DNA from: Agathobacter rectalis
Lineage (GTDB): Bacteria; Verrucomicrobiota; Kiritimatiellia; RFP12; DVOR01
Reading direction: 5' to 3'
Assembly (NCBI GenBank): GCA_963608725.1
Contig: CAVDHG010000001.1
Location: forward strand, 1 to 27,092
Length of the DNA stretch: 27,092 nt
The position numbers and the translations under genes are program-made. The notes below the pieces were generated by a model. The model was not told the origin of the DNA, ran no database searches, and worked only from the letters and a program-made list of their open reading frames with translations. This document shows positions 7,997-27,092 of this stretch, in pieces (the first letter of the stretch is position 1; every line of letters begins with the position of its first letter).

Positions 7997-8055
7997 GCCT
8001 TTTCTCTCCTTTTTCACCTAATCTTCCTCCTTTTTCCGCCTTTTTGCCTCACCCT

Positions 8056-8134
8056 CCCGCAACCGAGTTTGGGGTGTGTCCGCACCGAGATTGGGTGAAA
8101 CGCGGTGCGGAGGGAGGGGGATCGCGGTTGCGGG
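8056..8134. repeat. Intergenic palindromic repeat, copy A (3 x 22-bp modules)
   Basis: Outer IR CCCGCAACCG (8056-8065)/CGGTTGCGGG (8125-8134); inner IR TCCGCACCG (8079-8087)/CGGTGCGGA (8103-8111). Confidence 0.9.
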
Positions 8135-8165
8135 GGGAGTTAGTTGAGGTGCGACACGAAAGGGG

Positions 8166-8209
8166 AAAAGAACCTAGGGGAAGCCCGCTTGGGCTTCAGG
8201 GTTCTTTTT
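8166..8209. terminator. Probable bidirectional intrinsic terminator downstream of the esterase gene
   Basis: GAAGCCC-GCTT-GGGCTTC stem, extended by AAAAGAACC/GGTTCTTTT. A second hairpin (GAAGGCT...AGCCTTC) lies at 8229-8255. Confidence 0.65.
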
Positions 8210-8265
8210 GGTAGGTATGTGAGAGAGGGAAGGCTTCGTTCAACGCGGAGCCTTCGGGTGCGCCA

Positions 8266-9120
8266 TCAATCCGGCGTAACGTAGGCTTTCAGCTGACGGA
8301 AGAGGGCGTGTACGGGGGTTTGACCCTGCGCGGATTCCACCTTGCCCCGCTTCTGACGGAAGACCCACCTTAGCATGGCGGAATCGCCAAAGGCGCGTCC
8401 CCAGATGTTGTGCCCCGCGCCTTCGTACTCCGTGTACTTGGCACCAACGCCTTCTCGCATGAGCGCGGCGATGAGTCGCCTCGAATAGGCAACCGGCACG
8501 GTAGGATCCTGCGAGCCGTGGAACGCCCAAATCGACGTCTTTGCCATCGCCTTAACCGCGCTCTCCGTTGCCGAGCCACCTCCGCAGACTGGCACCGCCG
8601 CGGCGAAATACCCTTCCCAACGCGCAATGGCATCCCACGCGCCGTAACCGCCGAGGGAGTAGCCCCCGATGTAGAGTCGCTCCGGATCCGCCGTCCCCTC
8701 CGCGACCAGCGCGTCCAGATACTCCTTCACCGTGCGCAAGGCGGGAGCCGGGTAACGCGGAAGCTTCGTCTCCTCCGTAAAGGTCGTAATCCGCACCCAG
8801 CCATTCTGGCGCGTACACTGCGGAATCACGTAGAGCGCGGGAGGCAACGAGGAGTCGAGGAGTGCCGACTTGTATAAGCTCTGGAAGGGCGCCAACTGCG
8901 CCGAGTTGTCCGCGCCGCACTCGCCACTGCCGTGGAGGAGGACGAGCACCGGCACCGGGCGGTCTTTCGGCTGGTAGTGTCGCCACAGGCGCACGGGCAT
9001 GGTCTCGCCGAAGCGGTTCGTAATCGCCGAAGCCTCGAACTGTTCTGCCATCGAGAACTGCGCCTGCGCGAGAGTGGCGCAACCGCACAGCAGGAGAAGA
9101 AGCAACGCCTTACGCATCAC
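8266..9120 (-). CDS. Secreted alpha/beta-hydrolase (esterase/phospholipase/peptidase-like)
   Basis: Signal peptide (AQA), LHGSGE, nucleophile GYSLG, FHGSQDPTVP, GHNIW (Ser-Asp-His triad); ATGA-coupled to the acyltransferase stop. Confidence 0.85.
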   Translation of the reverse strand: MMRKALLLLLLCGCATLAQAQFSMAEQFEASAITNRFGETMPVRLWRHYQPKDRPVPVLVLLHGSGECGADNSAQLAPFQSLYKSALLDSSLPPALYVIPQCTRQNGWVRITTFTEETKLPRYPAPALRTVKEYLDALVAEGTADPERLYIGGYSLGGYGAWDAIARWEGYFAAAVPVCGGGSATESAVKAMAKTSIWAFHGSQDPTVPVAYSRRLIAALMREGVGAKYTEYEGAGHNIWGRAFGDSAMLRWVFRQKRGKVESAQGQTPVHALFRQLKAYVTPD

Positions 9121-9941
9121 CGCCGCACCTCAATCTTGCCCCACTGCTCCAACTTGGAAGCGATGAAGTCGATGCACTGCGCCTGCGCGTCCTTAGCGGT
9201 CGCACGCGTAACCGGAATGACCGGCCCGCACGCAAAGCGCACGGGAATATCCGTGTTGACAGGTCCGAAGTCCTTCGTGTACTTCCCAACGCCCAGAAAC
9301 GCCGTTTGCCCCGCCACCGGCACCACCGGCACGCCCGCATTCTGCGCCAACTTCACGCCCAGCGTATTGAAGTGGTGGCAGTCGAAGAAGGGCTGACGCG
9401 TCCCCTGCGGGTAGAGTAGAACCGACGCCTTGTCCTCCAAGAGGTAACGCTCCCCCTGATCGAGCACCAACTTCAGATCCGCCCGCGGGTCGACGCGCCC
9501 AACGGGGATGACCTTACGCGAGGCGAAGGTCTTCCCCACCCACGGCACGTTAAGCAACGAATGCTTTAGGACGATTGCCACCTCCCCATACGCCAGGAGC
9601 AACGGCGGGAACGCGAAGGTCTCGTAAAGGCTCATGTGGTTTGACACCACCACCACGGGCCCCACGCCTTCCAACTGCTTAAAGCCCTCGAGAATCACCT
9701 CCGTGCCCAGACGCTCCGTCTCCCAGAAGAGGTTGAACCCGCACTCCTGCCACCGCTGATCGTTAAAGGTGCCCCGATGTGCCAGCCACCCGCCACGCCA
9801 CATCGAGCCGCCCAACGCCCGCAAGTTAAACGCCAGCGACGTCCCCACGCCGTTCTTGCGCCGTTTGCCCAACGCTTCCGGAGGCGTCCGGTACTCCCCC
9901 GTCGCCTTAAACTGCTCCATGAAGGTCTCGACCTGTCGCAT
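9117..9941 (-). CDS. Lysophospholipid acyltransferase family protein (PlsC-like)
   Basis: Block I SNHMSLYE, IPVGR, block III YPQGTR, block IV VPVVPVA. Confidence 0.8.
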   Translation of the reverse strand: MRQVETFMEQFKATGEYRTPPEALGKRRKNGVGTSLAFNLRALGGSMWRGGWLAHRGTFNDQRWQECGFNLFWETERLGTEVILEGFKQLEGVGPVVVVSNHMSLYETFAFPPLLLAYGEVAIVLKHSLLNVPWVGKTFASRKVIPVGRVDPRADLKLVLDQGERYLLEDKASVLLYPQGTRQPFFDCHHFNTLGVKLAQNAGVPVVPVAGQTAFLGVGKYTKDFGPVNTDIPVRFACGPVIPVTRATAKDAQAQCIDFIASKLEQWGKIEVRR

Positions 9942-9947
9942 TGCCTG

Positions 9948-10808
9948 CTACCTTTCCGGATTCTTCGAACTCTCGTCACGCGCACTCGGCTTCGACCCCG
10001 CACCGCGATGCACCGGGAACCTCCCCTGCAACGCCTCCTCTGCCACCGTGCGCGTATCCATGGGGAAATCGCTCTTGAGCATCCACTTGAGGAAGGAACG
10101 CCCGTCCTTGTTGTCCGCCGCCAAGTCCTTGAGCTTCATGCCCTTCTTCTTGCCGAAGTTGACGCATACTTCGCCATCGATCCAACGCCACCGCCCGAGG
10201 CGATCGACGTTGAGCGGGTCTTGCGGGTTGAACATCTTATCGAGCGCGCCCATATCGCGGGGCAAATCGGGGTAACGCGCAAATTGCCCTTTGAGCACTT
10301 CAAGCGTGGCTTCGGCGTCGGCTGCCGCGCCATGCGCCGCCTCCCCGAGATCCTTCCCGCAGTAGAACTTGAGGGCTGCGGTTAGGTCGCGAGGCTCGCG
10401 CTTGTGGTAGATCCGCTGGGCATCGAGGAGCCGCCGTCCATCCGGATGAAAGGTCGTAATCCCGCAACGCAGGAACTCTTCGTTGAGGATTTGCGAATCG
10501 AAATAACCTGCCGAGAAGCCCGCGAGGTCGCAACCGTCGAAGAAGGCATAGATTTCCGCAGCCTTTTCGGCGAAGGTTGGGCAATGCTCCACTTCGGCAT
10601 CCGTAATGCCGTGAATGGCGATCGACTCCACGGGGATACGCATCTGCGGATTGAGCAACCACTCGCGATCCTCCCGGGAACCGTCCGGATTCAGGCGGAT
10701 CGCCGCCAATTCCAGGATGCGGTCGGCACGCGGACTAATCCCCGTCGCTTCAATATCGAAGACAATGAGGGGACACTGCAACGCGATTGGAAACTCACTC
10801 CGCTTCAT
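9948..10808 (-). CDS. DEDDh 3'-5' exonuclease (DnaQ/epsilon-like) with ExoX-like C-terminal domain
   Basis: ExoI FDIEATG, IHGITD, ExoII YFD, ExoIII HGAAAD; C-terminal NFGKKKG...FLKWML. Start trimmed to ATG 10808; the 5' extension runs through repeat copy B. Confidence 0.87.
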   Translation of the reverse strand: MKRSEFPIALQCPLIVFDIEATGISPRADRILELAAIRLNPDGSREDREWLLNPQMRIPVESIAIHGITDAEVEHCPTFAEKAAEIYAFFDGCDLAGFSAGYFDSQILNEEFLRCGITTFHPDGRRLLDAQRIYHKREPRDLTAALKFYCGKDLGEAAHGAAADAEATLEVLKGQFARYPDLPRDMGALDKMFNPQDPLNVDRLGRWRWIDGEVCVNFGKKKGMKLKDLAADNKDGRSFLKWMLKSDFPMDTRTVAEEALQGRFPVHRGAGSKPSARDESSKNPER

Positions 10809-10816
10809 AGCTCTCC

Positions 10817-10825
10817 ATTCTAGCA
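10817..10825 (-). promoter_or_regulatory. Extended -10 promoter of the exonuclease operon
   Basis: TGcTAGAAT ends 8 nt upstream of the ATG; no good -35. Confidence 0.55.
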
Positions 10826-10860
10826 CATCTCCCGCCCCCCAACACCTCTCCGCCCCACCA

Positions 10861-10943
10861 CCCCCCGCAACCGCGTTTGGGGTCTCTCCGCACCGCGATT
10901 GACCCGATCGCGGTGCGGACACCGGGGAAACTCGGTTGCGGGG
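10861..10943. repeat. Intergenic palindromic repeat, copy B (3 modules)
   Basis: Outer IR CCCCGCAACCG/CGGTTGCGGGG; perfect 13-bp inner IR TCCGCACCGCGAT (10887-10899)/ATCGCGGTGCGGA (10907-10919). Confidence 0.92.
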
Positions 10944-11088
10944 CATTTTCCGGGAGAGACCGGAGCGGTTTTGCATAAGTGCTTGAGTTTTCGTCGGGCG
11001 ATTCGCGTAGATTTCGCGATAAGGGCTTACCCTTGCTGGGGATGTACCGAAATGTTCAGTACTTGGGGGCGGAGAGGGGTGAATTTTG

Positions 11089-11188
11089 AACCTAAAAAGG
11101 GGGGTGTCCGCACCGCGATCGGGGTGAGTCCGGTTCGCGTTTGGGTGAAACGCGGTGCGGAGAGACCCGAAACTCGGTTGCGGGGGGG
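11089..11188 (-). repeat. Intergenic repeat, copy C (3 modules plus 1 degenerate), inverted relative to B
   Basis: Its reverse complement aligns ungapped with copy D2 (68/80 identical, hand count); ends 7 nt from the UbiA stop codon. Confidence 0.92.
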
Positions 11189-11195
11189 TGTGGGG

Positions 11196-12092
11196 TTAGG
11201 AGCCGGCGAAGAAGCGACCGGAGAGGTTGGCAAGGATCCAACAGGTCAGGAGCGCCCCGGTTACGCCGAGAGCCACTGGGGAGGGGTAGGCAAGCAGGCA
11301 CCAGAGGAGTTGCAGAAGGATCGTATGGCGGATAAGCCCGGCGACAAACGCAGGAAGTCGTTGCTCGGTAAGGAGAAGCGGAATCAGGGCTACGGAGGCA
11401 AGGAGGGGAGAAGCGTGGAAGCCGAGACCCAGAGCCCAGAAAAGCGGAATCAGGGCAAGCGTCATCCAAAAGGGCAACCAACGGGTTCCCTTGCGGAGGC
11501 GGGCGCGGGGGGAGGCTTCGTTCAGCGCAACGGCAGAGACGAGAATAATATAGGCAGTAAAGAAGAGTGTGGCAAGGAGGAGGGTTGGGGAGAGGGGGAT
11601 CGTGGCGGAAGACCACGACACGGCAGCTCCGAGCAGGACATTCGCACCTCGACAGCACCCCATGCAAAAAATCCCCACGCCGGGGATGTGTTTGGCGATG
11701 GCGTCATAGAGCAGAATCAACCCCGCGAGCAGGAGGGCGAGTTGCCAACCGCGTCCGGCAAGGAGAACGCCCATGACCGCGAGGATGCACGCGATGCGGA
11801 AGACGGCAGAGCGCGAGATGCGCCCGGAGGGGATGGGGCGCGAGGGACGCTCCGCGGCGTCGGTGCGGGCGTCAAAGGCGTCGTTCCAGAGGAGTCCGGC
11901 ACTATATAAGAGGAGGGAAGCTCCAATCCCGCAGAGGGGAACCCAGCCTCGCATTCCGCTCAGGCACCAGCCGACAAGGACGTCGCCGGGGACGGTGAAG
12001 AGGTTGGGCAAGCGGAGCAACTCCAACCAACCGCGAAGCCCCAGGCGTTTGGTGCGTGGGGCGCGGGGTTTGTGACGGGTTCGGGGAGTCAT
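11196..12092 (-). CDS. UbiA-family prenyltransferase (EboC-like)
   Basis: LLRLPNLFTVPGD N-terminus, Asp-rich NDAFDARTDAAERPSRPIPSG, LYD, MGCCRGANVLLG; multiple TM helices. Confidence 0.85.
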   Translation of the reverse strand: MTPRTRHKPRAPRTKRLGLRGWLELLRLPNLFTVPGDVLVGWCLSGMRGWVPLCGIGASLLLYSAGLLWNDAFDARTDAAERPSRPIPSGRISRSAVFRIACILAVMGVLLAGRGWQLALLLAGLILLYDAIAKHIPGVGIFCMGCCRGANVLLGAAVSWSSATIPLSPTLLLATLFFTAYIILVSAVALNEASPRARLRKGTRWLPFWMTLALIPLFWALGLGFHASPLLASVALIPLLLTEQRLPAFVAGLIRHTILLQLLWCLLAYPSPVALGVTGALLTCWILANLSGRFFAGS

Positions 12093-12113
12093 GGCATCCG
12101 GAGCACGGGGGAG

Positions 12114-13643
12114 CTAGTGCTTATGCCTGTGCGAGAAGGTGTTGCGGATGCTTTCGATGGCGGCGCGTTGTTGTGCCTTGCGTTGCGCTTCCTTGCGCTT
12201 CTCCAGGGCGGATGCGATCGCCGAGCCGATGGCGTAGAGCACGAGCAGAGCCAGCAAGCCACCGCCCGCCCAGATCCACCACGGTTGCGAGGCGTCCTGC
12301 TCTTGAGCCTGTTGCGCCTGCGTGCGAATGTGCGCGAGGTCGGCTAGGAGGGGCGAAATGGGGTCATCCTTAATAAACTGCGCGAGGGCTCGCCACTCCG
12401 AGGTCTGCGCATAGCTTCGCAACGCCTCCGGAATGCGCTGGGGGGCGAAGTCGGCTTGCGCGGACTCGGCTTGCGCGATGCGGTCGGCGGGATTCTGCAG
12501 GGCGCGGATGGAGGCGATGCGTTTGCGGAGGGAGGATTCGTGTTCGGCGCGTTGGGTCGAAGCGGTGATGAAAAGACCGTTGAGGGCGACTTGCACCTCC
12601 GGAAGGGCGTCGCAATCGTGGTATTCAGCGAAGAGCGGGAGGAGAGCCGTCATGCCCTTGAGGGGATCGGGGAGGCGTTGCGCCTGAGCGATGGCGTTGC
12701 GAAGGGCGGTGCGCTGGGCTTGCTTCTGGGCGGAATTGGCTTTCTTTTCGTCCCGCCACGCCTCCAGCTCGGCGCGAATCTTGGCGACGTGCGACCACTG
12801 GACGGACTGCTGACGCGCCTCGGGCAATGCGTCAATCTGGGTCAACGCCTTCTCCGGGTCCTGGATGCCCTGCAGACGCTGGAGATCCGCGCTCATCAGT
12901 TGCGTTTGCTCGCGAGCGGAGAGGGAGGGCTTTAGGGTGGAGTTCAGGTGAGAGACGGCTTGCTCGGCAAGTTGCGAAATGCGGGCTTTGAGTTTGTCTT
13001 TGTCCGGAACCTTCCCGGTGTCGCGACAGAATTCGCAAGAGGTGCGCCCGCCCTTGCAGTCCGGGCACTTCCCGGAGCCGTTACACGCGGGGCAACGACT
13101 CCGCGTTTTGGTCGCATTCTTGAGGGAGAAGTTGCTTGAGCCTTGGAAGGAGGAGGCGTTCTGCTGTTGGACGAGGATGCCACGCCCCCGGCAACGCTTG
13201 CACCTGCCCGTGGCGTCGCAGGTGCGACACTTCGATTCCCAGTTGCAGAAGGAGCAGGCGGTCAGGGCGTCGGAGATATTGGCGAGCTTCAGGAGCGCGG
13301 GGTCTTTAACGCTCTTGCGCAGGGCGAGGGCTTGGGTGCGGTAATCCTCCAGCTCGCCATCGAGGGCGCACTTGAGGACGCTGAGGGTTTGGCAGAGGGC
13401 GGCGAGGGTGGCATCGTCATTCGGCGTCTCCGAGCGGAGGACGCGCCAAGCCACGGCGGAGGTCGGCTCCTTCTGCAAGGTTACGAGCGCGTCATAACGC
13501 GAGAGCTCGGCAGAGGGGGGCAACTGCAGTTCGAGGGCTTCCCGGTAGAGGTTCGCGACGCGTTGCTCGTCGTATGCCGCGTGTGCCACGGAGGCACCGC
13601 ACAGGAGGAGCAGGAGCAAGAGATGTCGGATGAGCTGTGGCAT
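12114..13643 (-). CDS. Exported hypothetical protein with DnaJ-like CxxCxGxG zinc-finger region and C-terminal membrane anchor
   Basis: Signal peptide (..VAHA), six CxxC pairs, helical middle region, TM WWIWAGGGLLALLVLYAIG, basic tail. Start ATG 13643. Confidence 0.75.
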   Translation of the reverse strand: MPQLIRHLLLLLLLCGASVAHAAYDEQRVANLYREALELQLPPSAELSRYDALVTLQKEPTSAVAWRVLRSETPNDDATLAALCQTLSVLKCALDGELEDYRTQALALRKSVKDPALLKLANISDALTACSFCNWESKCRTCDATGRCKRCRGRGILVQQQNASSFQGSSNFSLKNATKTRSRCPACNGSGKCPDCKGGRTSCEFCRDTGKVPDKDKLKARISQLAEQAVSHLNSTLKPSLSAREQTQLMSADLQRLQGIQDPEKALTQIDALPEARQQSVQWSHVAKIRAELEAWRDEKKANSAQKQAQRTALRNAIAQAQRLPDPLKGMTALLPLFAEYHDCDALPEVQVALNGLFITASTQRAEHESSLRKRIASIRALQNPADRIAQAESAQADFAPQRIPEALRSYAQTSEWRALAQFIKDDPISPLLADLAHIRTQAQQAQEQDASQPWWIWAGGGLLALLVLYAIGSAIASALEKRKEAQRKAQQRAAIESIRNTFSHRHKH

Positions 13644-13657
13644 AGAAAGACCCCTTC

Positions 13658-14431
13658 TTACCAGACGATTTCCCGCGCTTCGAATATGGGGCCGTCCACG
13701 CAAACGCGCTTGAGGACATCGGCGCCATTGGAGCGAATCTTCTGCACGCAGGCGAGGCAGGCACCCGTGCCGCAGACCATGTGCTTATCGAGGGAGAGCC
13801 AGCCTTTGACGTTGTGGGCAATCGCCCGGTCGCCCACGGCGCGGAGCAACCCATCGGGACCGCACGCGTAAAGCTCGACGTCTCGCGTCGTCTCCAGCGC
13901 GGCATCCAGAGGCGCGGTTACGAGTCCTTTCGTGCCCAGCGAGCCATCCTGCGTGGCGATGTGAACCTCCCAGCCCGCCTCCTGAAAGGGCGCGACTTCC
14001 AGGATGTCCTGCGTCGTACGCCCGCCAACGAAGAGTGCACCCTTGCGCGGAAGACGGGAGGCGAGGAACCACAGGGGAGCGACGCCGTATCCGCCACCGA
14101 CGAGGAAGGGCGTACCGGCGGGTTCGAGCGGGAAACCGCGCCCAATGGGGCCCATGATCGGGAGGGTGGTGCCGACGGGAAGCTGCGCCAGGTGCGCGGT
14201 GCCCGAGCCGACCACTTTGTAGAGGATGCGGATTTGCCCCTTGGCGGGCGAGGCGTCGTAAATGCTGAATGGGCGGCGCAACCGGGAGGCTTCGAGGGTC
14301 GGGATGCGGATGTGGACGAATTGTCCCGGCTCGGCGCGCTCGGCGATCTCGGGGACAGCCAAGGTGAGGACGCGGTAGCTCTCCGAGAGCGGGCGGATGT
14401 CGAGAATCGTTGCCTTGCAGTCGAGGATCAT
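13658..14431 (-). CDS. pyrK: Dihydroorotate dehydrogenase electron-transfer subunit-like FAD/[2Fe-2S] oxidoreductase
   Basis: PGQFV, RRPFSI, GGGYGVAP, ACGP, CGTGACLAC...CVDGPIF. Start ATG 14431 forms an ATGA overlap with the kinase stop. Confidence 0.85.
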   Translation of the reverse strand: MILDCKATILDIRPLSESYRVLTLAVPEIAERAEPGQFVHIRIPTLEASRLRRPFSIYDASPAKGQIRILYKVVGSGTAHLAQLPVGTTLPIMGPIGRGFPLEPAGTPFLVGGGYGVAPLWFLASRLPRKGALFVGGRTTQDILEVAPFQEAGWEVHIATQDGSLGTKGLVTAPLDAALETTRDVELYACGPDGLLRAVGDRAIAHNVKGWLSLDKHMVCGTGACLACVQKIRSNGADVLKRVCVDGPIFEAREIVW

Positions 14432-17370: not shown

Positions 17371-17383
17371 AATCGCTCTAAAG

Positions 17384-18229
17384 TTAGGGCTGACGCTGGA
17401 AGGTCGTCGGGTCTTGGGGGACAATGTCGAAGTTCGGCTTCCAATGCGGGGAAGCACTGTAGAACGCCATCGGCGTGTGGTAGGTGATGGCTTCAATCAC
17501 GGATTCCTCGAAGCCGTCGGCACGCAGGCGGTCAACCACTTTAATGAGCGACAGCGGGTCGCTGATGCCCCAATCCGCCGAGCCGTTGACAATCACGCGT
17601 TCATGCCCGTGCAGGCGGATCATGGCACTGACGCGCTCGGGCGAGAGCTTGGAATAGGGGTAGACGGTCATCCCGGCGTAGCACCCGCTCTCCAAGGCGA
17701 GGGCAATCGTTTCCTCAACATTATGGTCAATATCGATCCGCTCGGGCGTCAGCCCCTCCGCCTTGATAATCTCCAGGACGCGCCGAATGCCTTTGAGCTT
17801 GTTAAAGTGAGGCAGGTGCAGGACAATGGGCATCTTGCGCTCCTCAGCCATGCGCAGTTGCCGGACAAGCGCGTGCTCCTCGTTTTCCGTAATATTATTG
17901 AAGCCGATCTCTCCGAGGGCGACGCACCGGGGGTGATCCAGGTACTCGCCCATCCCGTCAATCACTTCGTCGGCTAACGCCCGATTCTCCGCCTCCTTCG
18001 GGTTCATCCCGATCGCGCTCCAGTGGTCTACCCCGAAACGCGCCGCCCGGACGTGTTCGAATTCCAGCGAAAGGCGGAAATAGTCAAAAAATGTCCCAGC
18101 ATACCGCCGATTCTCCCCCTGCCAGAAGGACGGCTCCACGCAGACGCGTATCCCGTGCTTATGCATGAGCTGATACTCGTCGGTCGTCCGGGAAATCATG
18201 TGGATATGCGGTTCAATGATAGGCTTCAA
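17384..18229 (-). CDS. TatD-family metal-dependent hydrolase (EboB-like subfamily)
   Basis: PHIHMISRTTDEY, GMNPKEAEN, GEIGF, LHLPH, IDHN, SADWGISDPL; TTG start preceded by AGGAGG. Confidence 0.85.
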   Translation of the reverse strand: MKPIIEPHIHMISRTTDEYQLMHKHGIRVCVEPSFWQGENRRYAGTFFDYFRLSLEFEHVRAARFGVDHWSAIGMNPKEAENRALADEVIDGMGEYLDHPRCVALGEIGFNNITENEEHALVRQLRMAEERKMPIVLHLPHFNKLKGIRRVLEIIKAEGLTPERIDIDHNVEETIALALESGCYAGMTVYPYSKLSPERVSAMIRLHGHERVIVNGSADWGISDPLSLIKVVDRLRADGFEESVIEAITYHTPMAFYSASPHWKPNFDIVPQDPTTFQRQP

Positions 18230-18256
18230 CGCAAAACCTCCTATAGAAGTAGGCTT

Positions 18257-18265
18257 AGTCTAACA
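18257..18265 (-). promoter_or_regulatory. Extended -10 promoter candidate for the tatD-kinase operon
   Basis: TGtTAGACT about 28 nt upstream of the TTG start. Confidence 0.45.
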
Positions 18266-18374
18266 CAAAACGGCAAAACCGCGAAATCTTGAACCACCCC
18301 CCGGAGCCAAACTCGCCCTTTTGGGTCAAAAAGCGACGCTTTTTCGCCGTTTTTGTGTCTCGACCTCCAAACCG

Positions 18375-18488
18375 CCCGCAACCGCGTTCGGGGGAGACGC
18401 AACCGCGTTCGGGGGAGACGCGAGGCGGACACGAGGCAAACGCGAGGCGGACTCACCTCGATCGCGGTGCGGACACCCCGGTTTTCCC
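18375..18488 (+). repeat. Intergenic repeat, copy D1 (5 modules, including an exact 21-bp tandem duplication)
   Basis: Modules start at 18383, 18404, 18426, 18448 and 18470; CGCAACCGCGTTCGGGGGAGA occurs twice (18377-18418). Confidence 0.88.
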
Positions 18489-18524
18489 CTTCTTTACCAA
18501 AAAGGTAGGGATTCCTTTTTCCTA

Positions 18525-18620
18525 CCCCCCGCAACCGCGTTTGGGGAGTCTCCGCACCGCGTTTGACCCAAACGCGAACCGGGCAGAGGTCGATCGCGGT
18601 GCGGAGACCCCGGAAAAGGG
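18525..18620 (+). repeat. Intergenic repeat, copy D2 (4 modules)
   Basis: CCCCCCGCAAC then modules at 18536, 18558, 18580 and 18602 with linkers CAC, AAC, GTG. Confidence 0.92.
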
Positions 18621-18623
18621 GGG

Positions 18624-18659
18624 AGTTATGAACAAAAACCCCGCCTTGTGTTCATAACT
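18624..18659. promoter_or_regulatory. Perfect 11-bp inverted repeat (operator-like or DnaA-box-like pair)
   Basis: AGTTATGAACA-N14-TGTTCATAACT. Confidence 0.45.
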
Positions 18660-18818
18660 TTTGAGATTGCTTGAGAAGAGAAAGCGTTATGCTGTTTCCG
18701 GAGTAAAAGAGCCGAGTTGGGGGTGGCTTCGTTGCGAAAGGGAGGGGGAAACGGGGGTAAATTGGGGCAAAAAGTGCCCTTTTCTAACGAAAAAGTAACG
18801 GAAAAGCGGGTTTTGATT

Positions 18819-18827
18819 TGCTATACT
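18819..18827 (+). promoter_or_regulatory. Extended -10 promoter of the antiporter gene
   Basis: TGcTATACT followed by GGAGG and ATG 18851. Confidence 0.6.
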
Positions 18828-18850
18828 GTCAAAACTGGGAGGTTTCGCCG

Positions 18851-20908
18851 ATGGATGGCTCCGTTTCGTTCTTTACCGATCTAAGTATCGTAATCGTTGT
18901 CGCGACCTTCGTCGGTCTGGTTTTTTCACGCTTTAATCTTCCCCTGACGGTGGGGTACATCCTCGCCGGCGTGCTGGTGGGCCCCACGGTGGGTCCCGCG
19001 CTGATCCGGAACAAAGAGAACATCCAGATGCTCTCGGACTTGGGCGTGATGTTCTTGATGTTCTCGATCGGGCTGGGGTTCAGTTTCCGGCGGGTGCGCC
19101 AGATGGGCTCGGCGGTGGTCTTCCCGGCGGTCTGGGACGTGGTCTTTATGGTCTTGGGGGGCTTCTGCCTAGGCAAACTCCTCGGTTGGGGGAACTTGGA
19201 GTGTTTCCTCCTCGGTTTGATTCTCTGCGACAGCTCCACCTCGATTGCGGCGAAGACGCTCGAGAGCCTGGGTTGGCTCGGGAAGCGTTTTGCGGATTGC
19301 ACCTTCGCGATTGCGTTGATTGAGGATGTGCTGGCGATTTTGCTTATCGCGGTTTTGGGTGGCATAGGCGGGGGCGAAGCCGGAAGCGGGGACTGGACGC
19401 AGACGGCGTTGGTCGTGGGGCGGCAACTGGGCGTCCTGGTGCTCTTCCTCGTGGGCGTGACGGTGTTCGGGATCCTGTTCGTGCCGAAGCTGATGAACCG
19501 CATTGCCGCGAAGTTTGGCGATGAGATGGTGCTCATGACCGCGCTGGGAATCTGCTTTGGCGTGTCCTGCTTGGCGCAGAACGGGTTGGGACTTTCGCTC
19601 GTGGTGGGCGCGTTCCTTGCCGGAGCGGTTATCGCCGAGTCGAAGGAGCGGCGCAAGATCGAGCAGACGGTGCGCCCGGTAACGAACCTCTTCGCGGCGG
19701 TCTTCTTCGTCTCGGTCGGCTTGATGATGGATCCGAAGATTATTTGGGACAACATCGGCGTGGTGGTTTTAATCACCTTCGCGATGATCGCCTTGAAGTG
19801 GGTCAATAACGCTTCGGCGTGTCTCCTGGTGGGTGAACGCTCGCGGGATGCCTTCAAGATCGGTATCGGGATGGGGCAGGTGGCAGAGTTCTCGTTCATC
19901 ATCGCGGGGATCGCGATGTCGCGGGGAATGAGCGAGCGCCCGCTCTACCAGATCGCGGTGGGCGTGGCACTCCTGTGCACGGCAACGAATCCCTACCTCT
20001 TGCGGAGCTCGGACAAGCTCTACGATTGGACGGTTCGGCTCTGCGCACCGCTACGCCTCAACGAGATCTTGCAGTGGTATCGGCGGTGGACTGCCGAGCT
20101 CTCCACGCACCTTTCGTCGAGCGGGCGGACGAGTGCCGTAGAGATCCGCAAGCAGGCTCTCTTCATCGGCGTGGATCTCTCCATCGTGGCGATCTTCTTC
20201 TCCGGCGTCTACTTCCTCTCGCGCCTGACCTTCGTGCAGACGTTCCTGAATCGGCTGAACGCCGAGGGCTGGTTGCCCTTCGGGGACTACGTGCCGTGGG
20301 GGAGCATGCTCTGCTGCGTGTGCGCGTTGCTCCTCGCGGTGCCCCCGTTTTACGCGGCGTGGAGGTCTTGGGAGAAGCTTGGAGACATCGTGGCGAACGA
20401 CGCCTTCTCCTACGTCTCCATTGAGGAAGTGCGCCGGACGATTCGGCTGGTCATGCGCGTGATTGGGTGGTGCGGGATCTTCGTCTATGCCACCGTCCTT
20501 TGCGCCATCTTCGCTACGACCCTGTGGGTTACGGTAATCGCTATCGCGCTTATCGCAGTCATCACGCCCTTCTACTCGAAGTACTTTACGAGTCGCCTCG
20601 CAAAGTCGCACGAGCTTCTGACGAATGCCTTTGACGTGAACGCCATCCCCGTGGAGCCGCCGGACATCTCCAGTCTCTCCGTCCACACGCGCACGGTGAA
20701 GATTACCAGCCACTTCCTGCACGATGGCAAGACGCTCGGCGAGCTAGACTTGCGTCATGTCTCCGGGGCTTCGGTGATCTCGGTGAATGCCAACTTCTTG
20801 CCCGGACGCGATACCGCCCTGCATTCCAATGATGTGCTGGTGATTGCTGGCTCGGATGCCGAGCTGGAACGCGCCGAAGCTATTTTAATGAGGCAGAAGG
20901 ACGCGTAA
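18851..20908 (+). CDS. CPA2-family cation:proton antiporter (Kef/YbaL-like) with C-terminal TrkA-C (RCK-C) domain
   Basis: GYILAGVLVGP, LGVMFLMFSIGL, SSTSI, IEDV, GAFLAG, FFVSVG, QVAEFSFII; tail GKTLGELDLR...GASVI...DVLVIAG. Start ATG 18851 with GGAGG. Confidence 0.9.
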   Translation: MDGSVSFFTDLSIVIVVATFVGLVFSRFNLPLTVGYILAGVLVGPTVGPALIRNKENIQMLSDLGVMFLMFSIGLGFSFRRVRQMGSAVVFPAVWDVVFMVLGGFCLGKLLGWGNLECFLLGLILCDSSTSIAAKTLESLGWLGKRFADCTFAIALIEDVLAILLIAVLGGIGGGEAGSGDWTQTALVVGRQLGVLVLFLVGVTVFGILFVPKLMNRIAAKFGDEMVLMTALGICFGVSCLAQNGLGLSLVVGAFLAGAVIAESKERRKIEQTVRPVTNLFAAVFFVSVGLMMDPKIIWDNIGVVVLITFAMIALKWVNNASACLLVGERSRDAFKIGIGMGQVAEFSFIIAGIAMSRGMSERPLYQIAVGVALLCTATNPYLLRSSDKLYDWTVRLCAPLRLNEILQWYRRWTAELSTHLSSSGRTSAVEIRKQALFIGVDLSIVAIFFSGVYFLSRLTFVQTFLNRLNAEGWLPFGDYVPWGSMLCCVCALLLAVPPFYAAWRSWEKLGDIVANDAFSYVSIEEVRRTIRLVMRVIGWCGIFVYATVLCAIFATTLWVTVIAIALIAVITPFYSKYFTSRLAKSHELLTNAFDVNAIPVEPPDISSLSVHTRTVKITSHFLHDGKTLGELDLRHVSGASVISVNANFLPGRDTALHSNDVLVIAGSDAELERAEAILMRQKDA

Positions 20909-21821
20909 CGTCTTCCCGCACGCGCTTGAGGTCTTCAAGCACCTGAGCCTTCAAGGCATCGACGGAGCTGAACTTCACTTCCGGGCGAATCTGCGCCGAG
21001 GTGAAGGAGAGGCGCACCGGGGAATCGTAGAGGTCTTCGGTAATATCTAGGAGGTACGCCTCGAAGAGGGGCGTGCTTTCATTTTTGATGCTGGGCGCAA
21101 CGCCGAAGTTGACCAGCGCAGGGTGCGAGGAGGTAGGCGTCGTGGCGATTGCCGAGTAGACGCCACGGGCGAGGGGAGCTAAGGGAGCCTCGTCGGGGGA
21201 GGCGACGTAGGGGATATTGGCAGTCGGGATTCCCAGAAGCTCGCGGGCGAGTTGACGACCATGGATGACCCGCCCCTCAAAGCTCCACGGGCGCGAGAGC
21301 ATTGCCGAAACGGCGTCCAGCCTGCCACTTGCCATTGAAGCGCGGATGCGGGTGGAGGAGACGCGTTCGCCCTGCCAGGTGGCGTAGGGGACGACTCGGA
21401 CGTCGAAGCCCTGCGCCTTGAGGAAGTCCGGCGTGCCTTCCGCGCCCGCGCCGAATCGCCAGTCGTCCCCGCAGAAGATCGTGGTGCCCCGGAGGCGGTT
21501 GGCGAAATCCTGCGCGGAGAGATCGGCGAGCGCGTGGTCGAAGGGCACGCAGAGCAAGGTGCCATCGGGCAGGAGCGCGGAGAGCTCGCGGAGGAAGGCT
21601 TGCTCCTGCAAGATGCGCCCGGGGACGCGGTTGGGGGCGAGGAGCGCATTGGGGGAATTGGAAAAGGTAAGGATGCAGGGCGTCCGGTGGGTGCTCTCGG
21701 CGAAATCGCGCATGGCGCGGATGAGAGCTTGGTGCCCCACGTGCACGCCGTCGAAGGTGCCGACCGCCAAGGCGGAGGAGGCTGGAAGGCGATCAAGCGA
21801 GTTCGCGAAGAGGCAAGCCAT
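20880..21821 (-). CDS. ribF: Bifunctional riboflavin kinase/FAD synthetase
   Basis: GTFDGVHVGHQ, WRFG, VSSTRIR, GIPTAN, FEAYLLD; TAATG-coupled to truB (start 21821). Confidence 0.93.
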   Translation of the reverse strand: MACLFANSLDRLPASSALAVGTFDGVHVGHQALIRAMRDFAESTHRTPCILTFSNSPNALLAPNRVPGRILQEQAFLRELSALLPDGTLLCVPFDHALADLSAQDFANRLRGTTIFCGDDWRFGAGAEGTPDFLKAQGFDVRVVPYATWQGERVSSTRIRASMASGRLDAVSAMLSRPWSFEGRVIHGRQLARELLGIPTANIPYVASPDEAPLAPLARGVYSAIATTPTSSHPALVNFGVAPSIKNESTPLFEAYLLDITEDLYDSPVRLSFTSAQIRPEVKFSSVDALKAQVLEDLKRVREDVTRPSASLK

Positions 21822-22558
21822 TAGGCTTTCCCGGAGAGATAGTTCGTGCAGGGGATGACCCGCCGCTCTACTTCCGCCCGGGGCATCTCCAGGAGTTCGG
21901 CAAAGGGCGTAGCCGAGGCGATGGAAATCTTGCCGGATTCGACACGGCGCAAGGCACAGAGATGCGCCCCCGTGCCGAGCACGCCACCCAAGTCGTGGGC
22001 TAGCGTGCGGATATACGTCCCCTTGGAACAGCGGACAACGAAGTCGGCTTCCGCGCAGGTTTGTGCCGGGCGGAACGCCGTGATCGAGAAGGAGAAGATG
22101 TGCACGAGCCTCTCGCTCCGTTCGCACGCCTCCCCGCGGACAGCCATCTTATAGAGCGGTTGCCCGGCGATCTTCACCGCCGAGTACATCGGGGGCACCT
22201 GAAAGATGTCGCCAAGGAAATCCTTTTTAATGGCAGAAAGAATCGCCTCTTGCGTGAGCGAGGCAGTGTCGTGTTGCTCCAAGACCTCGCCCAGGCGATC
22301 TTGCGTAGTGGTAACCACGCCGAAGCGGATGGTGCCTTCGTAGGTCTTGTTCCCGCCCATGACGCGGTCGGAAATCTTCGTCCCCTTCCCGAGGAGGATG
22401 AGGAGGAGACCCGTGGCGTCCGGATCCAGCGTCCCGCCATGCCCCACCTTGGTGAAGCCGAACTTGCGACGCAGGGTTGTAACGATGACGTGCGAAGGCA
22501 TCCCCGCCGGCTTGTCAACGGGGAGGATGCCATCGGGATCTGGGAAAACCGCGCTCAT
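21821..22558 (-). CDS. truB: tRNA pseudouridine(55) synthase
   Basis: DKPAG, KVGHGGTLDPDATG, QVPPMYSAVK, CSKGTYIRTL. Confidence 0.96.
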   Translation of the reverse strand: MSAVFPDPDGILPVDKPAGMPSHVIVTTLRRKFGFTKVGHGGTLDPDATGLLLILLGKGTKISDRVMGGNKTYEGTIRFGVVTTTQDRLGEVLEQHDTASLTQEAILSAIKKDFLGDIFQVPPMYSAVKIAGQPLYKMAVRGEACERSERLVHIFSFSITAFRPAQTCAEADFVVRCSKGTYIRTLAHDLGGVLGTGAHLCALRRVESGKISIASATPFAELLEMPRAEVERRVIPCTNYLSGKA

Positions 22559-22603
22559 GGGAAAAGGGGTCGCTTGCTTCGTGTGCGCGAGGTGCCGCTG
22601 CGC

Positions 22604-22978
22604 TTACGCTTGGGGTGGCTCGTCATCTACCGGAGGCGGCAGATGGTTGAGGATGTCCAGCACGCGATCGCCCTTGGAGATGCCGACGTCGAGGCGGAAG
22701 CGCAGGTGTGGCGTAAAGCGCAGGGTCAGATTTTGGTTGATGAGCGTCTGGATCTCCTTGGCGTGCTTGGAGAGACGTCGGAGCCACGTGTGATGTTGCT
22801 CGGCATCGCGAATCGAGACCCAGACGTCCGCCGTGCGGAGGTTGCGGGCGCAGTCCACCTTCGTTACGGTTATCCCCGCCACGTCGATCTCCGGGTCGGA
22901 TTGCAAGACGCGGAAAAGGTCGTCGGCAATCTCCCGGAGAAGGAGCGCGTTGATTCTCTCGAGGCGGTTAACAGCCAT
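22604..22978 (-). CDS. rbfA: 30S ribosome-binding factor A
   Basis: RLERIN N-terminus, ITVTKV, LRFTPHLRFRLD; canonical position between infB and truB. Confidence 0.92.
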   Translation of the reverse strand: MAVNRLERINALLLREIADDLFRVLQSDPEIDVAGITVTKVDCARNLRTADVWVSIRDAEQHHTWLRRLSKHAKEIQTLINQNLTLRFTPHLRFRLDVGISKGDRVLDILNHLPPPVDDEPPQA

Positions 22979-23006
22979 GGTTCAAGCCTTGTCTGCGCGG
23001 GATGCC

Positions 23007-25640
23007 TTAGAGCGTCTTGGGAAGCTCTTCCATCTCGTAGCACTCGACGATGTCGCCCTCTTGGAAGCCCTCGAAGGAGCCGAAGCCCAAGCCACACTCT
23101 TGCGCGGGGGCGATCTCCTTGACGTCGTCCTTAAAGTGCTTCATCGTCACCACTGCGCCGTCGTAGATCTGGGTCTTCCCGCGATAGATGCGGAACTTGC
23201 CCTTGAACTTCAGCGAGCCATCGAGCATCTGGCAGCCGGCAATCTTGCCGAGCTTGCTGATGTCGAAGACCTGCCGCACTTCGGCGTGCCCGCGCACGAC
23301 TTCCTTGTACTCCGGCGCGATGAGGTCGAGCATGCACCGCTTCACGTGCTCAATCAGCTCGTAGATGATGCGGAAGGTGTTTACGCGCACGCCGTTCTGA
23401 CGCGCCATCGCCTGGACGCCCGGCTCGCAGTTGACGCTGAAGCCGAGCACGGTCGCCCCCTTGGCGCGCTGGATGTCGGCAGAGGTGATAGAGCCAACGC
23501 CCGAGTAGAGCACCTTGAGGGAGACCTTGTTGGACTTGATGTCCTTGAGGCATTCAACCACGGCTTCGGCGGTTCCCTGCGCGTCGCCCTTAACGATCAC
23601 GTCCAGCTCGGCTTTGCCATCGGAGTCGAGGAGCTTCGTCCAGTCTGAGAGAATGGAGGACTGCGCCGCGGAGAGGGATTGCAACTTGTTCGCTTCTGCC
23701 GTGCGCTCGGCAAGCTCGCGGGCACGCTTCTCGTTGAGCATGACGCGGAACTCAGAGCCCGCTTCCGGGACGCCGGATAGACCGGTGCACTTAACCGCGA
23801 TGGAAGGCCCGGCAGACTTAACCTGCTTGCCCCGCTCGTCAATAAGCGTGCGCACCTTGCCGTAGTGCTCGCCACAGAGAACGACGTCGCCAACTTTGAG
23901 CGTACCGCCCTGAATGAGGAGCGTCGCCGTGGGCCCTAAGCCCTGCTCGAGCTGCGACTCAATAACCGCGCCGTTCGCACGGCGGTTGGGATTGGCTTGA
24001 AGCTCCAAGACGTCCGCCTGGATGAGGATCGTTTCCAGCAGGTCGTCCACGCCTTGCCCGGTTGTGCCCGAGACTTCGCAGCATTCAATGTCGCCACCCC
24101 ACGTGCTCGGCGTCAGCCCTTCGGCTTGCAACATCTGATAGACGCGCATGGGGTTGGCTTCCGGCTTGTCGCACTTGGTAACCGCCACCAGCATCTGGAC
24201 TCCGGCGTTGCGGGCGTGCTTGATGGCTTCGCGGGTTTGAGGCATCACGCCGTCATCCGCCGCCACGATGATCACGGCAATATCCGTGATATTCGCTCCG
24301 CGTGCACGCATGGATTCGAACGCCGAGTGTCCGGGGGTGTCGACGAACGTGATGAGGCGTTTGTTGCCGGCGTCATCCGTCTGGTCGAGTTGGATCGTAT
24401 AGGCGGCGATGTGCTGCGTAATGCCACCTGCTTCCCCGGCAGCGACGTGCGCCTTGCGGATGTAGTCCATGAGCGTGGTCTTGCCGTGGTCAACGTGCCC
24501 CAAGAAGGTAACCACCGGCGGACGCAGCACCATGTCCTCGGGCTTATCCTCGGGGATATCGTCATCCGCGTCTTCGCTCTTCAACTGTGGCTTACGCTCT
24601 GCCGAACGCTTCGAACGCTCCGAAACTTCGGTGGTGAAGCCGTACTTCTCGGCAATCTTCTGGATGAGCCCGGGCTCGAGCGTCTGGTTGATGGTGGCGA
24701 GCACCTTCAGCCCCATGAGGTCAACAATCAACTTGTTGGGGAGCACGTCCATCAGCTCGGCAAGCTCCTTAACGGTCATGGGGCCGTTGAGCTGGAGCTT
24801 CTTACCCGTGAGAACAACCGCCGGAGGCGTGGCACTGTGCGCCGAGCCGGTCTGCGCGGAAGCACCCGGAGCCTTACGCCCGGAGCGATCGTTACGCCTG
24901 CCGTCGTTGCGTTGCGCCGGAGCGTTCCGCCCGTTACCGCGCAGATTGGCATTCCGGTCATTCTTCTTGTTCGGCGTCGTCGGCGAAAGCCCAACGAGTA
25001 CTGGGCGCGGAGGCTCAGCGTTGACCTTGGGCGCGAGGGTTGACTTCGGGGACGCACTCGGCATCGACGGCGCGGGCGAGACGGGCGCAGGCTTCGCGCT
25101 CACCGGGGTCGCCGGGCGCGGAGCCGGAGCCTTCGGAGCCACCTGAGACTTCTCGGGCTTCTCGACTTTCGGTGCCGGCGCGGGGGCAGGCTTCTCTTCG
25201 GCGGGCTTCGCTTCGGCAACGGGTGCCACCTGCTCCGGTTTTTCCGCCGGCGCAGGTTCTGCCTTAGCGACTTCGGGTTGAGACTTCGGCTCCGCCTTCG
25301 GAGCTTGCGCAACCTTAACCTTCGGCGTGCCCTTGCCCAGGTGCGCCGCTTCGAGTGCCTTTTCCCGGTGGACTTCTACGGCTGCGCGGTTGGTCTTGGC
25401 GTCCTGCAAACGCTCCGCATCGCCCTTGGCTTTACGCGCCTTGTGCGAAGCTTCATACTTGTCCAGCAGGGCTTGACGCGCTTCTGCGCTCAGCCCCTTC
25501 AGCCAGGAGTCTAGGGAAGAAACGTCCTCCGCATCGAGAGCAGAGAGCGTTGAGGATACCTCCAACGCCAAAGCCTTGGCTTGAGCCAAGACGATTCCGG
25601 CGGGAAGTCCGTTCTTTTTGGCGAATTCGGTAACTCTCAT
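23007..25640 (-). CDS. infB: Translation initiation factor IF-2
   Basis: [43 protein letters not shown]; Ala/Pro/Lys-rich N-terminal linker. Confidence 0.98.
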
Positions 25641-25644
25641 GCAC

Positions 25645-26919
25645 TCACTCCTTGGCGTCTACGATGCGCTGGGCGTGTTCGTAAATATCGTTGACGGTCG
25701 CCTCGTCCAAGCCGGTCGTCGTCTGGAAATAGGCGGGCTCGGCGTGCAGGACGCCCTCGGGGGAGTGGAACCCGCACTCGAAGAGCTTCTCGGCAACCGC
25801 CGTGGTCACCTCGAACTCCCTGGCGAGCTGGTGCACCATCTCGTCGCGCTTGTTCTCGAAGATAAAGGCATCGCTCTCCACCTTCGCGGGCGCGGCGTCT
25901 GCGGTAATCGAGATCTTCCACCCGGTCAGCTTCGTTGCCAGGCGAACGTTCTGCCCGCCACGCCCGATCGCGAGCGAGAGCTTGTCTTCGGGCACGGTAA
26001 CGTAGACTGCGTGATTATCGTCGTCAATCTGGAGCGAGGTCGGCTCTGCCGGCTGAAGTGCCGCCCGGACGAAGAGCTCGGGGTCATCGCTGTACCGCAC
26101 GATGTCCACCTTTTCGCCATTCAGCTCCCGGACAATGTTGCGCACACGCGCTCCGCGCATCCCCACGCAAGCCCCCATCGGGTCAACCGCAGGGTCGAGC
26201 GAGCGCACTGCCACCTTGGAGCGACGCCCCGGGTCGCGAGCCACGCCCAAGATTTCCACCACGCCATCTGCCACTTCCACCACTTCCACGCGGAAGAGGG
26301 CTTTCACAAATTCCGGGCACGCACGCGAGAGCGTAACCGCCGGACCCGAGTTCTCGTTCTGCACGCGCAGGACGTACGCCCGCACCACGTCGCCGGTGTT
26401 GTACTCTTCGGTCGGGATCCGCTCCTTCGCGGGGAGCAGAGCCTCTGTCTTGCCCAGCTCCACGTAAACATCTTTACGCGCCACCAGCTTGACCGAGCCC
26501 GTAACAATGTCGCCCACGCGGTCCTTATATTCATTGAAGACGTTGTTGCGCTCGGCTTCGCGGATTTTCTGCATGATGGTCTGCTTTGCCGTTTGCGCTG
26601 CGATGCGCCCCAGCTTCGCCGCCGGGAAGGGCACCTTGACGGTGTCGCCATCGTTCACCTCGGGGTCAAACCGCCTCGCTTGCTCCACGGTCAGAATCCC
26701 GAGCCCGTGCTCTTCGTCAGAGACGGCGTAGACGTCCCAAGCGCGGATTTCCAACGTTTTACGGTCGATGCGCACGGTGAAATCCGCCGAGACCCGCGTA
26801 TTCTTGCGGGCGGCTTGCTCAACCGAACTCTCAATGGCTTGTAAGATCGTCTCGCGATCCACCCCGCGCTCCCGCTCAAGGTAACCGATTACAGCCGCGA
26901 ATTCAGCATTGATTGCCAT
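25645..26919 (-). CDS. nusA: Transcription termination/antitermination factor NusA
   Basis: GRIAAQTAKQ, S1 domain, ARDPGRRSKVAV, GACVGMRGARV, LAIGRGGQNVRLA; C-terminal HhH-like region; AGGAG RBS. Confidence 0.97.
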   Translation of the reverse strand: MAINAEFAAVIGYLERERGVDRETILQAIESSVEQAARKNTRVSADFTVRIDRKTLEIRAWDVYAVSDEEHGLGILTVEQARRFDPEVNDGDTVKVPFPAAKLGRIAAQTAKQTIMQKIREAERNNVFNEYKDRVGDIVTGSVKLVARKDVYVELGKTEALLPAKERIPTEEYNTGDVVRAYVLRVQNENSGPAVTLSRACPEFVKALFRVEVVEVADGVVEILGVARDPGRRSKVAVRSLDPAVDPMGACVGMRGARVRNIVRELNGEKVDIVRYSDDPELFVRAALQPAEPTSLQIDDDNHAVYVTVPEDKLSLAIGRGGQNVRLATKLTGWKISITADAAPAKVESDAFIFENKRDEMVHQLAREFEVTTAVAEKLFECGFHSPEGVLHAEPAYFQTTTGLDEATVNDIYEHAQRIVDAKE

Positions 26920-26949
26920 CGTGTAGGACTCCTTCCTTCTTCCTCTAAT

Positions 26950-26978
26950 AAAAAAGCGCAGGCTGTCTGCCCACGCTT
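26950..26978 (-). terminator. Terminator-like attenuator hairpin in the nusA operon leader
   Basis: AAGCGTGGGC-AGACA-GCCTGCGCTT (10 bp, 2 GU pairs) followed by a U-tract, between the promoter and the RBS. Confidence 0.75.
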
Positions 26979-27003
26979 CTACCCGGAAATAGAAAACACA
27001 CGC

Positions 27004-27032
27004 AACATACCAAAGCCTCCCGCCCCTGTCAA
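27004..27032 (-). promoter_or_regulatory. Sigma70 promoter of the nusA-infB operon
   Basis: TTGACA (27032-27027), 17-nt spacer, TATGTT (27009-27004) with an extended TG. Confidence 0.8.
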
Positions 27033-27060
27033 GAGAACCGCCCTCGCTCCCTTCCCTCCT

Positions 27061-27092
27061 CCCCCCTCCGAACCGAGTTTCCCCTCTCTCCG
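27061..27092 (+). repeat. Intergenic repeat, copy E (truncated by the window end)
   Basis: C-run, then CGAAC and a full 19-bp module CGAGTTT-CCCCT-CTCTCCG, matching the first module of copies A, B, C and D2. Confidence 0.75.

Follow-up and report, generated by a model that had tools for sequence, protein, structure and literature searches.

The window analysed here, a 27,092-nt stretch that is contig CAVDHG010000001.1 (C1) of the draft genome GCA_963608725.1, carries copies of an intergenic repeat that is built from phased 22-nt units and recurs in hundreds of copies throughout the genome. The repeat signal is real and far above chance. We favour, with moderate confidence, the interpretation that these sequences are high-copy, lineage-specific, mosaic palindromic intergenic repeats that have spread as selfish DNA, non-autonomous and hairpin-forming, of the kind known from repetitive extragenic palindromic sequences (REPs), bacterial interspersed mosaic elements (BIMEs) or miniature transposable elements with inverted repeats (MITEs). 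The family would thus represent a known type of element whose modular build is unusually regular, and it adds a well-defined member from an uncultured lineage to the REP/BIME/MITE range. It is apparently undescribed, as judged from a literature search that covered the known repeat classes and not this exact family.

The draft genome comprises 1,671,341 bp in 180 contigs, has a G+C content of 61.5% and is 93.5% complete. Genes were called with a simple codon-usage open reading frame (ORF) caller, which yielded 1267 genes with exact stops and conservatively placed starts, leaving 86.6% of the sequence as coding and 13.4% as non-coding. A core site of the element lies within 120 nt of the end at 176 of the 360 contig ends. 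The repeat family accounts for the fragmentation of the draft into 180 contigs, and every copy count given below is therefore a lower bound.

Modular grammar and element classes

A sequence-only reading of the window had described the repeat as a C-run followed by CGCAAC and by 19-nt modules of the form CG-N15-CG that are joined by 3-nt linkers, and this grammar was borne out. The right half of an element mirrors the left (GTG, GTTGCG, G-run), and the whole element is a long imperfect palindrome. Genome-wide, the linkers were counted as GTG (169), CAC (158), GTT (58), AAC (50), CCT (35) and AGG (29). The GC-rich junctions CCGCAACCG and TCCGCACCGCG and their complements are nearly invariant. 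Adjacent junction motifs are separated by 22 nt (136 and 132 pairs), 23 nt (117 pairs) or 44 nt (53 pairs) and by almost no other distance, the 23-nt spacing arising at the A junction, which is one base longer; the junction layouts seen are A+ C+ c- a-, A+ C+ c- and C+ c- a-. The 22-nt phase, proposed from the few copies in the window, is thus kept in a far larger sample. Since the spacings are almost exclusively of these three lengths and in-phase chains of modules are nearly all non-coding (see below), the 22-nt modular model survives.

Two classes of elements can be distinguished. Class I elements of about 83 nt contain two direct and two inverted sites in the order C-run, CGCAAC, L, CAC, M, GTG, R, GTTGCG, G-run. 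This structure was found exactly in 29 copies, while 54 more end in GTTCAA, GTTCAG, GTTCGG or another variant of GTTGCG, and a relaxed pattern recovered 126 copies. Class II elements of about 105 nt have three direct sites and one inverted site; they add a module M1 (CGCGTTT-N5-AAACGCG), the linker AAC and a module M2, and they close with GTG or GTT followed by CGGAGACCCC. They usually end in a T-run, after which one of a few conserved tails follows; at least four T residues stand behind the closing stem in 52 of the 64 full class II copies, and class I copies have no such run. Companion modules occur on many contigs, namely CTTTACCAAAAAGGTAG hairpin tails, CTTTTACAAAAATGTAAA or CTTTTACATTTTTGTAAA tails with the loop in both orientations, and GTTATGAACA...TGTTCATAAC hairpins.

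The sequence-only reading had missed these companion modules, the compositionally biased flanks described below and a composite unit of about 345 bp. In the window, the composite lies at positions 10817-11195 (+) and consists of a class I copy (copy B, 10861-10945), an internal region of 152 nt (10944-11095) and a reversed class II copy (copy C, approximately 11095-11190). A blastn search of positions 10830-11210 against the same genome revealed 14 full-length composite copies with flanks, and the internal 152 nt alone gave 63 matches of at least 70 nt with approximately 72-90% identity. The conserved core of the internal region reads TTTGCATAAGTGCTTGAGTTTTCG. Similarity between composite copies ends at CCCCCGCAACCG on one side and at CGGTTGCGGGGG on the other, the two forming, as in MITEs, terminal inverted repeats with a short non-coding core between them. 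Because similarity stops at these two sequences, the composite and the 83-nt form have common termini, like a MITE and its ends-only derivative. On contig C114 (5860-6652), three units of class II element plus internal region are arranged in tandem with a period of about 242 nt and reach the contig end. Two candidate features of the internal region were considered and dropped: a small conserved ATG-led frame, as a G-run abuts the ATG and the frame length varies between subfamilies, and a sigma-54 promoter in the conserved core, which was rejected by eye on its spacing.

Variation among copies is confined to particular positions. Nearly all variable positions have two states, which are A/C, A/T or T/C in the half-arms and a G-run or a C-run in the module centres. 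High mutual information was found only between adjacent positions, and none of the 28 strongest column pairs corresponded to palindromic partners. Within an element, the L and R arms are complementary at 12.8 of 19 positions, compared to 13.8 of 19 for randomly re-paired arms (z -5.6), and the two arms of M are likewise anti-correlated. Conservation thus falls on the junctions and on their phase and not on any pairing between the centres. The earlier characterisation of conserved junctions with free centres therefore holds, and the lack of arm covariation fits it. Perfect long palindromes are putatively avoided, and the junctions may be recognised by some factor.

Abundance, intergenic location and lineage restriction

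The most frequent 14-mers of the genome all derive from this repeat family and reach up to 201 copies. A profile of the 47-nt terminal arm detected 488 arms (E <= 0.01), of which 484 lie outside called genes. Chains of at least three in-phase CG-N15-CG modules were found 253 times in 224,527 non-coding nt and once in 1,446,814 coding nt. At least three other matches in the genome exist for 64,144 of 217,787 non-coding nt (29%) and at least 20 for 50,502 nt, and the 31-bp pattern CCGCACCG-N15-CGGTGCGG with its 16 fixed bases was matched 128 times. The intergenic bias noted in the window is hence a property of the whole genome, and the family is not one of few copies. The statement that no copy lies inside a gene does not extend to the whole genome, as two copies outside the window contact genes (see below).

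The location of the elements does not follow gene orientation. Copies were found in 9 of 54 divergent (16,960 nt), 24 of 764 tandem (75,831 nt) and 3 of 89 convergent internal spacers (10,549 nt), which corresponds to about equal occupancy per kb of spacer, based on the 36 internal spacers that could be classed, most copies being situated at contig ends. Elements show no preference for the 3' ends of genes: the gene beside a terminus reads away from it in 138 cases and towards it in 71, compared to a background of 369 and 236 at long spacers. Composite copies have no consistent orientation relative to genes, and in 51 of the 63 copies of the internal region the contig end precedes any gene on one side. 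Among the 52 class II copies with a T-run, 38 have a called gene on the side of the A terminus, and this gene reads into the hairpin in only 12 of them. A GC-rich hairpin with a T-run, as expected of an intrinsic terminator, is present in these class II copies, a co-oriented upstream gene in a minority of them, and a simple terminator does not explain the repeat well, as the earlier reading had supposed.

Outside this genome, the family was hardly matched at all. The pattern CCGCACCG-N15-CGGTGCGG was absent in 39 of 40 other genomes, which represented 24 congeneric species and 16 genomes from 11 other families of the order; one stray palindrome match was found in congener G017. A sequence-only covariance model of the arm gave at least 151 matches in its own genome and none in 26 of 27 congeners. 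The single weak match, in G014, is a coding look-alike with no second junction, and the arm thus occurs in none of the 27. A blastn search with the stretch including the composite unit revealed matches only to genes in all 27 congeners. In two well-assembled congeners with 70% G+C, each sampled at approximately 200 kb, no 14-mer exceeded eight copies, while a like-sized sample of the present genome reaches 22. In metagenomes, from which records of the genome itself had possibly been left out, a 21-mer of the internal core gave no match, and a 20-mer of the M module gave seven, all of them chance matches with no further junctions. A scan of public genome contigs gave at least four loci among the matches listed, all chance matches in coding-like DNA with little bearing on other phyla. 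The sequence-only reading had not recognised the family, and the window has no match in Rfam at gathering thresholds; at E <= 1, only generic hairpins far below threshold appeared. As far as searched, that is in the genus and in 16 further genomes of the order, the family seems to be confined to this species-level lineage.

The repeats mark a lineage of lower G+C content and smaller genome size within its genus and coincide with breakpoints of synteny. Its 61.5% G+C and approximately 1.7 Mb compare to about 70% G+C in the two sampled congeners G010 and G006, a difference of about 9 points, and to 1.9-2.5 Mb for most of the genus. Gene identity to congeners reaches only about 72-78%, and the gene order common to five of them breaks at positions 8018-8265 (GT8/hydrolase), 10810-11195 (RNase T/UbiA) and 18230-18850 (TatD/Na+/H+ exchanger) of the window.

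Comparison with known repeats and competing explanations

Di Nocera et al. (2013; PMC3733652) describe REPs as palindromes of 20-40 bp that carry a GTAG or CGTC tag and lie mostly downstream of genes, and link the GTAG type to REP-associated tyrosine transposases (RAYTs), whereas the CGTC type is described there as having no dedicated transposase. Like REPs and BIMEs, the present elements are high-copy, extragenic, GC-rich imperfect palindromes, and some REP/BIME families are species-specific as well. Units in alternating orientation, conserved short linkers, mosaic structure and position-specific conservation with fixed mismatches recall the BIMEs; what is common is the architecture, not homology. 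The central CCGCACCG-N15-CGGTGCGG hairpin is with 31 bp of REP size, while the full element is larger (83-105 nt). In contrast to REPs, neither the arm consensus nor the whole-element consensus and their position tables show a GTAG or CGTC tag at the conserved end, a RAYT gene was not found, and the gene 3' ends are not preferred. Furthermore, a strict 22-nt phase runs here through three to five modules of one long palindrome, whereas REPs are separate units with variable linkers. Paired inverted hairpins that form one non-autonomous unit, occur in hundreds of copies and have no target-site duplication are also features of the REPINs that RAYTs mobilise (PMC3116915). Unlike REPINs, the present family has no detected RAYT partner and no clusters of identical or nearly identical copies.

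With regard to MITEs, the composite and its ends-only form combine terminal inverted repeats, a short non-coding core, a size of 80-350 bp and an internally deleted version. Such features are known from the Correia/NEMIS elements, and a variable number of modules is known from the modular BOX elements of pneumococci. MITEs differ from the present family in that no target-site duplication and no related autonomous insertion sequence (IS) or transposase were found here and that the termini themselves consist of phased 22-nt units. The ends of Tn7, with their TnsB sites, and of Mu, with their MuA sites, contain several recognition units of about 22 bp per end that are inverted between the ends. 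The present elements may resemble them in this respect, but the genome has no rve-type transposase, the termini lack TG...CA and the sequences are unrelated. Overall, the family works like REP/BIME or MITE elements but does not qualify as a member of any of these groups. Lacking a tag, a RAYT and a target-site duplication, it raises, like the CGTC REPs, the question of how such elements multiply.

We favour selfish, non-autonomous multiplication because of the abundance of the family, its extragenic location, the breaks at contig ends, the even occupancy of spacers and the absence of an orientation bias towards genes beyond background. The hierarchy of composite and ends-only forms with common termini and the tandem arrays on C114 argue in the same direction, as both are typical of non-autonomous elements, and so do the restriction to one lineage, the strong predicted hairpins of copies A, B and D2 and a copy that stands exactly at the end of homology of a helicase. 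In the latter case (C16:9275-9380), the ORF of a DEAD-box helicase reads through a class I element that starts at approximately residue 539 of 573. Five orthologues remain homologous up to residues 541-568 of 573, the two that match best up to 541-542; the last 30 or so residues of the helicase are therefore encoded by the element. This is the pattern that an insertion at the very 3' end of the gene would give. If the elements spread in this way, a trans-acting protein that copies or moves the element would recognise it by the invariant phased junctions; candidates may be a transposase, a nuclease or an activity of the host's recombination or repair. The two-state module centres would then act as spacers, and their mismatches may keep the stem of about 40 bp from becoming a perfect palindrome. 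Inserted copies may secondarily serve as transcription barriers.

Several observations weigh against this interpretation. The RAYT family (PF01797) was not detected in the 93.49%-complete, repeat-broken draft, although control genomes were matched; this is weak evidence, as an unassembled copy is possible. Together with the missing tag, it leaves the REPIN/RAYT membership that the sequence-only reading had considered unsupported. The families PF01609 (DDE_Tnp_1), PF00665 (rve), PF01548 (IS110), PF07282 (TnpB zinc-ribbon) and PF00872 (Mutator) were likewise absent from the draft and matched in control genomes. All self-repeats of at least 350 bp are ordinary paralogous genes or the composite itself, and there is hence no autonomous relative among them. 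The five genes that are flanked by elements on both sides are all housekeeping genes. In 47 class I copies, no target-site duplication was detected, since no direct repeat of 3-8 nt exceeded shuffled partners at any offset. The breaks of synteny at the element-bearing spacers leave no empty site for comparison in congeners. Among the 126 class I copies none are identical, and on average 5.1 of 69 positions separate a copy from its nearest neighbour, which is close to the value of 5.6 in module-shuffled controls; there is therefore no signature of a master copy or of a burst. Unforced constant positions are conserved to at least 98% beside two-state positions, as if each copy were constrained where it stands; a host function explains this at least as well as neutral decay of junk DNA does, or better. 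Finally, the 40-60 nt that lead into each terminus contain 41-49% C and 9-14% G, whatever the direction of the adjoining gene, compared to 25-29% C and 30-31% G in element-free spacers, a bias that a simple insertion model does not predict. The flanks are not conserved in sequence, and partner flanks resemble each other no more than shuffled flanks do. The combination of constant junctions beside two-state centres, sub-chance complementarity of the arms and biased flanks makes the family a test case for selfish spread versus host function.

The biased flanks are what would be expected if the elements were transcription barriers selected by the host, in which units stop transcripts arriving from both sides, either Rho-dependently or intrinsically, as a tract resembling a Rho utilisation (rut) site leads into a stable hairpin. 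The C-rich, G-poor composition is present in the 40 nt before each terminus regardless of gene direction and unlike in element-free spacers, and a rho gene is present in the draft. T-runs follow the closing stem in most class II copies and also occur in the composite, the constant positions are kept in every copy, and copies A and E have sigma-70-like promoters immediately outside them. We nevertheless consider such barriers unlikely as the reason for the family's existence. The upstream gene rarely reads into a T-run copy, only few of the convergent and tandem internal spacers carry an element, 27 congeners manage without the family, and the hairpin arms do not covary. The same lack of covariation, with partners even less complementary than shuffled ones, argues against a paired single-stranded form being what is conserved and would rather suit a double-stranded array of binding sites for a nucleoid-associated or iteron-like protein, in which the 22-bp phase would bring the CCGCA(A)CCG sites to the same side of the helix. 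Invariant, strictly phased junctions with free centres fit such an array, and G-run and C-run centres would be one duplex flipped. No candidate protein was identified, however, and as congeners lack the family, the binder would have to be lineage-specific or recruited; moreover, an abundance that breaks the assembly, composites and tandem arrays would sooner be expected of selfish repeats. We therefore give a binding array only a small probability.

It appears very improbable that the copies are genes for structured non-coding RNAs whose functional part is the internal 152 nt or the hairpins. The core of the internal region is conserved, and small motifs of a hairpin and a T-run show a few apparently compensatory changes when the alignment is inspected by eye. 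Against this stand the missing Rfam match, the arms that do not covary, the absence of a promoter-like site within the B-C composite and the result of RNAalifold, which found essentially no consensus structure for 38 internal regions (-5.7 and -0.3 kcal/mol for the two strands). It may also be speculated that selection maintains a genome-wide system of phased 22-nt modules with rut-like approaches, acting as a two-way insulator or as a scaffold for a binding protein, which spreads without a classical transposase by hairpin-templated copying or short-patch gene conversion; we give this scenario a small probability. Spread by short-patch conversion is hinted at by an element-like patch in aroC, the gene for chorismate synthase. 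Here, 43 in-frame nucleotides (C14:9374-9416; profile E 1.8e-5) contain a C-run, CGCAACCG and TCCGCACCGCGATTGACC at the correct spacing of 23 nt, with no change in length or frame compared to four alignable congener orthologues, in which the motifs are absent. The stretch is possibly a short conversion patch from the repeat, its direction and mechanism being ones that we infer.

Copies in the window and neighbouring features

All six copies that had been proposed for the window were recovered at their positions, and the repeat search groups them as one family through direct and inverted matches. A self-BLAST of the non-coding DNA found repeated sequence at positions 8023-8149, 10817-11195, 18371-18634 and 27054-27092; up to 417 other matches were obtained. 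As had been noted before, four of the five large intergenic spacers of the window contain a copy.

Copy A, a class I element to which no strand was assigned, extends from 8023 to 8149 including repeated flanks, with its core at 8053-8137 and the complete order of C-run, CGCAAC, L, CAC, M, GTG, R, GTTGCG and G-run. As at every element terminus, the roughly 60 nt of flank (here 8018-8052 and 8138-8165) are rut-like in composition when read inwards, and rich in G-runs and G-quadruplex-like when read outwards. A sigma-70-like promoter (TTGACG-17-TATCAT; 7996-7968, -) lies outside this copy, upstream of the GT8 gene.

The third region opens with copy D1 (18371-18488, +), a class II variant with AGG linkers that ends in CGGACACCCC and GGTTTT and has no match to the arm profile. 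At its start, a tandem duplication (18377-18421) measures 21 nt and not 22 nt, and is a local exception to the 22-nt phase. Copy D1 is followed by a companion tail module of the CTTTACCAAAAAGGTAGGGATTCC type (18489-18524, +), which recurs after many class II copies and contains a terminator-like match at 18491-18511. Copy D2 (18525-18620, +) is a class II element with C-run, CGCAAC, L, CAC, M1, AAC, M2, GTG and the class II closing sequence. A companion hairpin of the GTTATGAACA...TGTTCATAAC type, followed by TTTTG, occupies positions 18621-18665 (+), and equal arms recur beside or inside other copies. A supposed degenerate module further downstream (18713-18731, containing CGAGTTGGGGGTGGCTTCGTTGCG) has no match to the arm profile and is at most a possible degenerate terminal remnant. 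Copies C and D2 are indeed related, as had been suggested, but not by direct alignment: they are reverse complements of each other with 86% complementarity over 87 nt.

Copy E (27054-27092, +) consists of a terminal arm with the junction variant CCGAACCG and is cut off by the contig end. Outside it, a further sigma-70-like promoter (TTGACA-17-TATGTT; 27032-27004, -) was recognised by eye upstream of nusA.

Strong RNA hairpins were predicted for copies A (-49.1 kcal/mol, z -4.6 compared to shuffled sequences), B (z -7.9) and D2 (-61.5 kcal/mol, z -6.1), and weaker ones for copies C (z -2.9) and D1 (z -1.4). With DNA parameters, copy C folds at -22.0 kcal/mol, and copies A, B and D2 fold at -25.6 to -35.9 kcal/mol.

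Among the genes of the window, an ORF of 529 amino acids (12114-13703, -) with a good coding score had no Pfam family and no usable match in the Atlas. Elsewhere in the genome, two paralogous genes with 85% identity (C87:318-1086 and C70:9222-9993) encode secreted proteins that, as judged by eye, end in a PEP-CTERM-like sorting signal.

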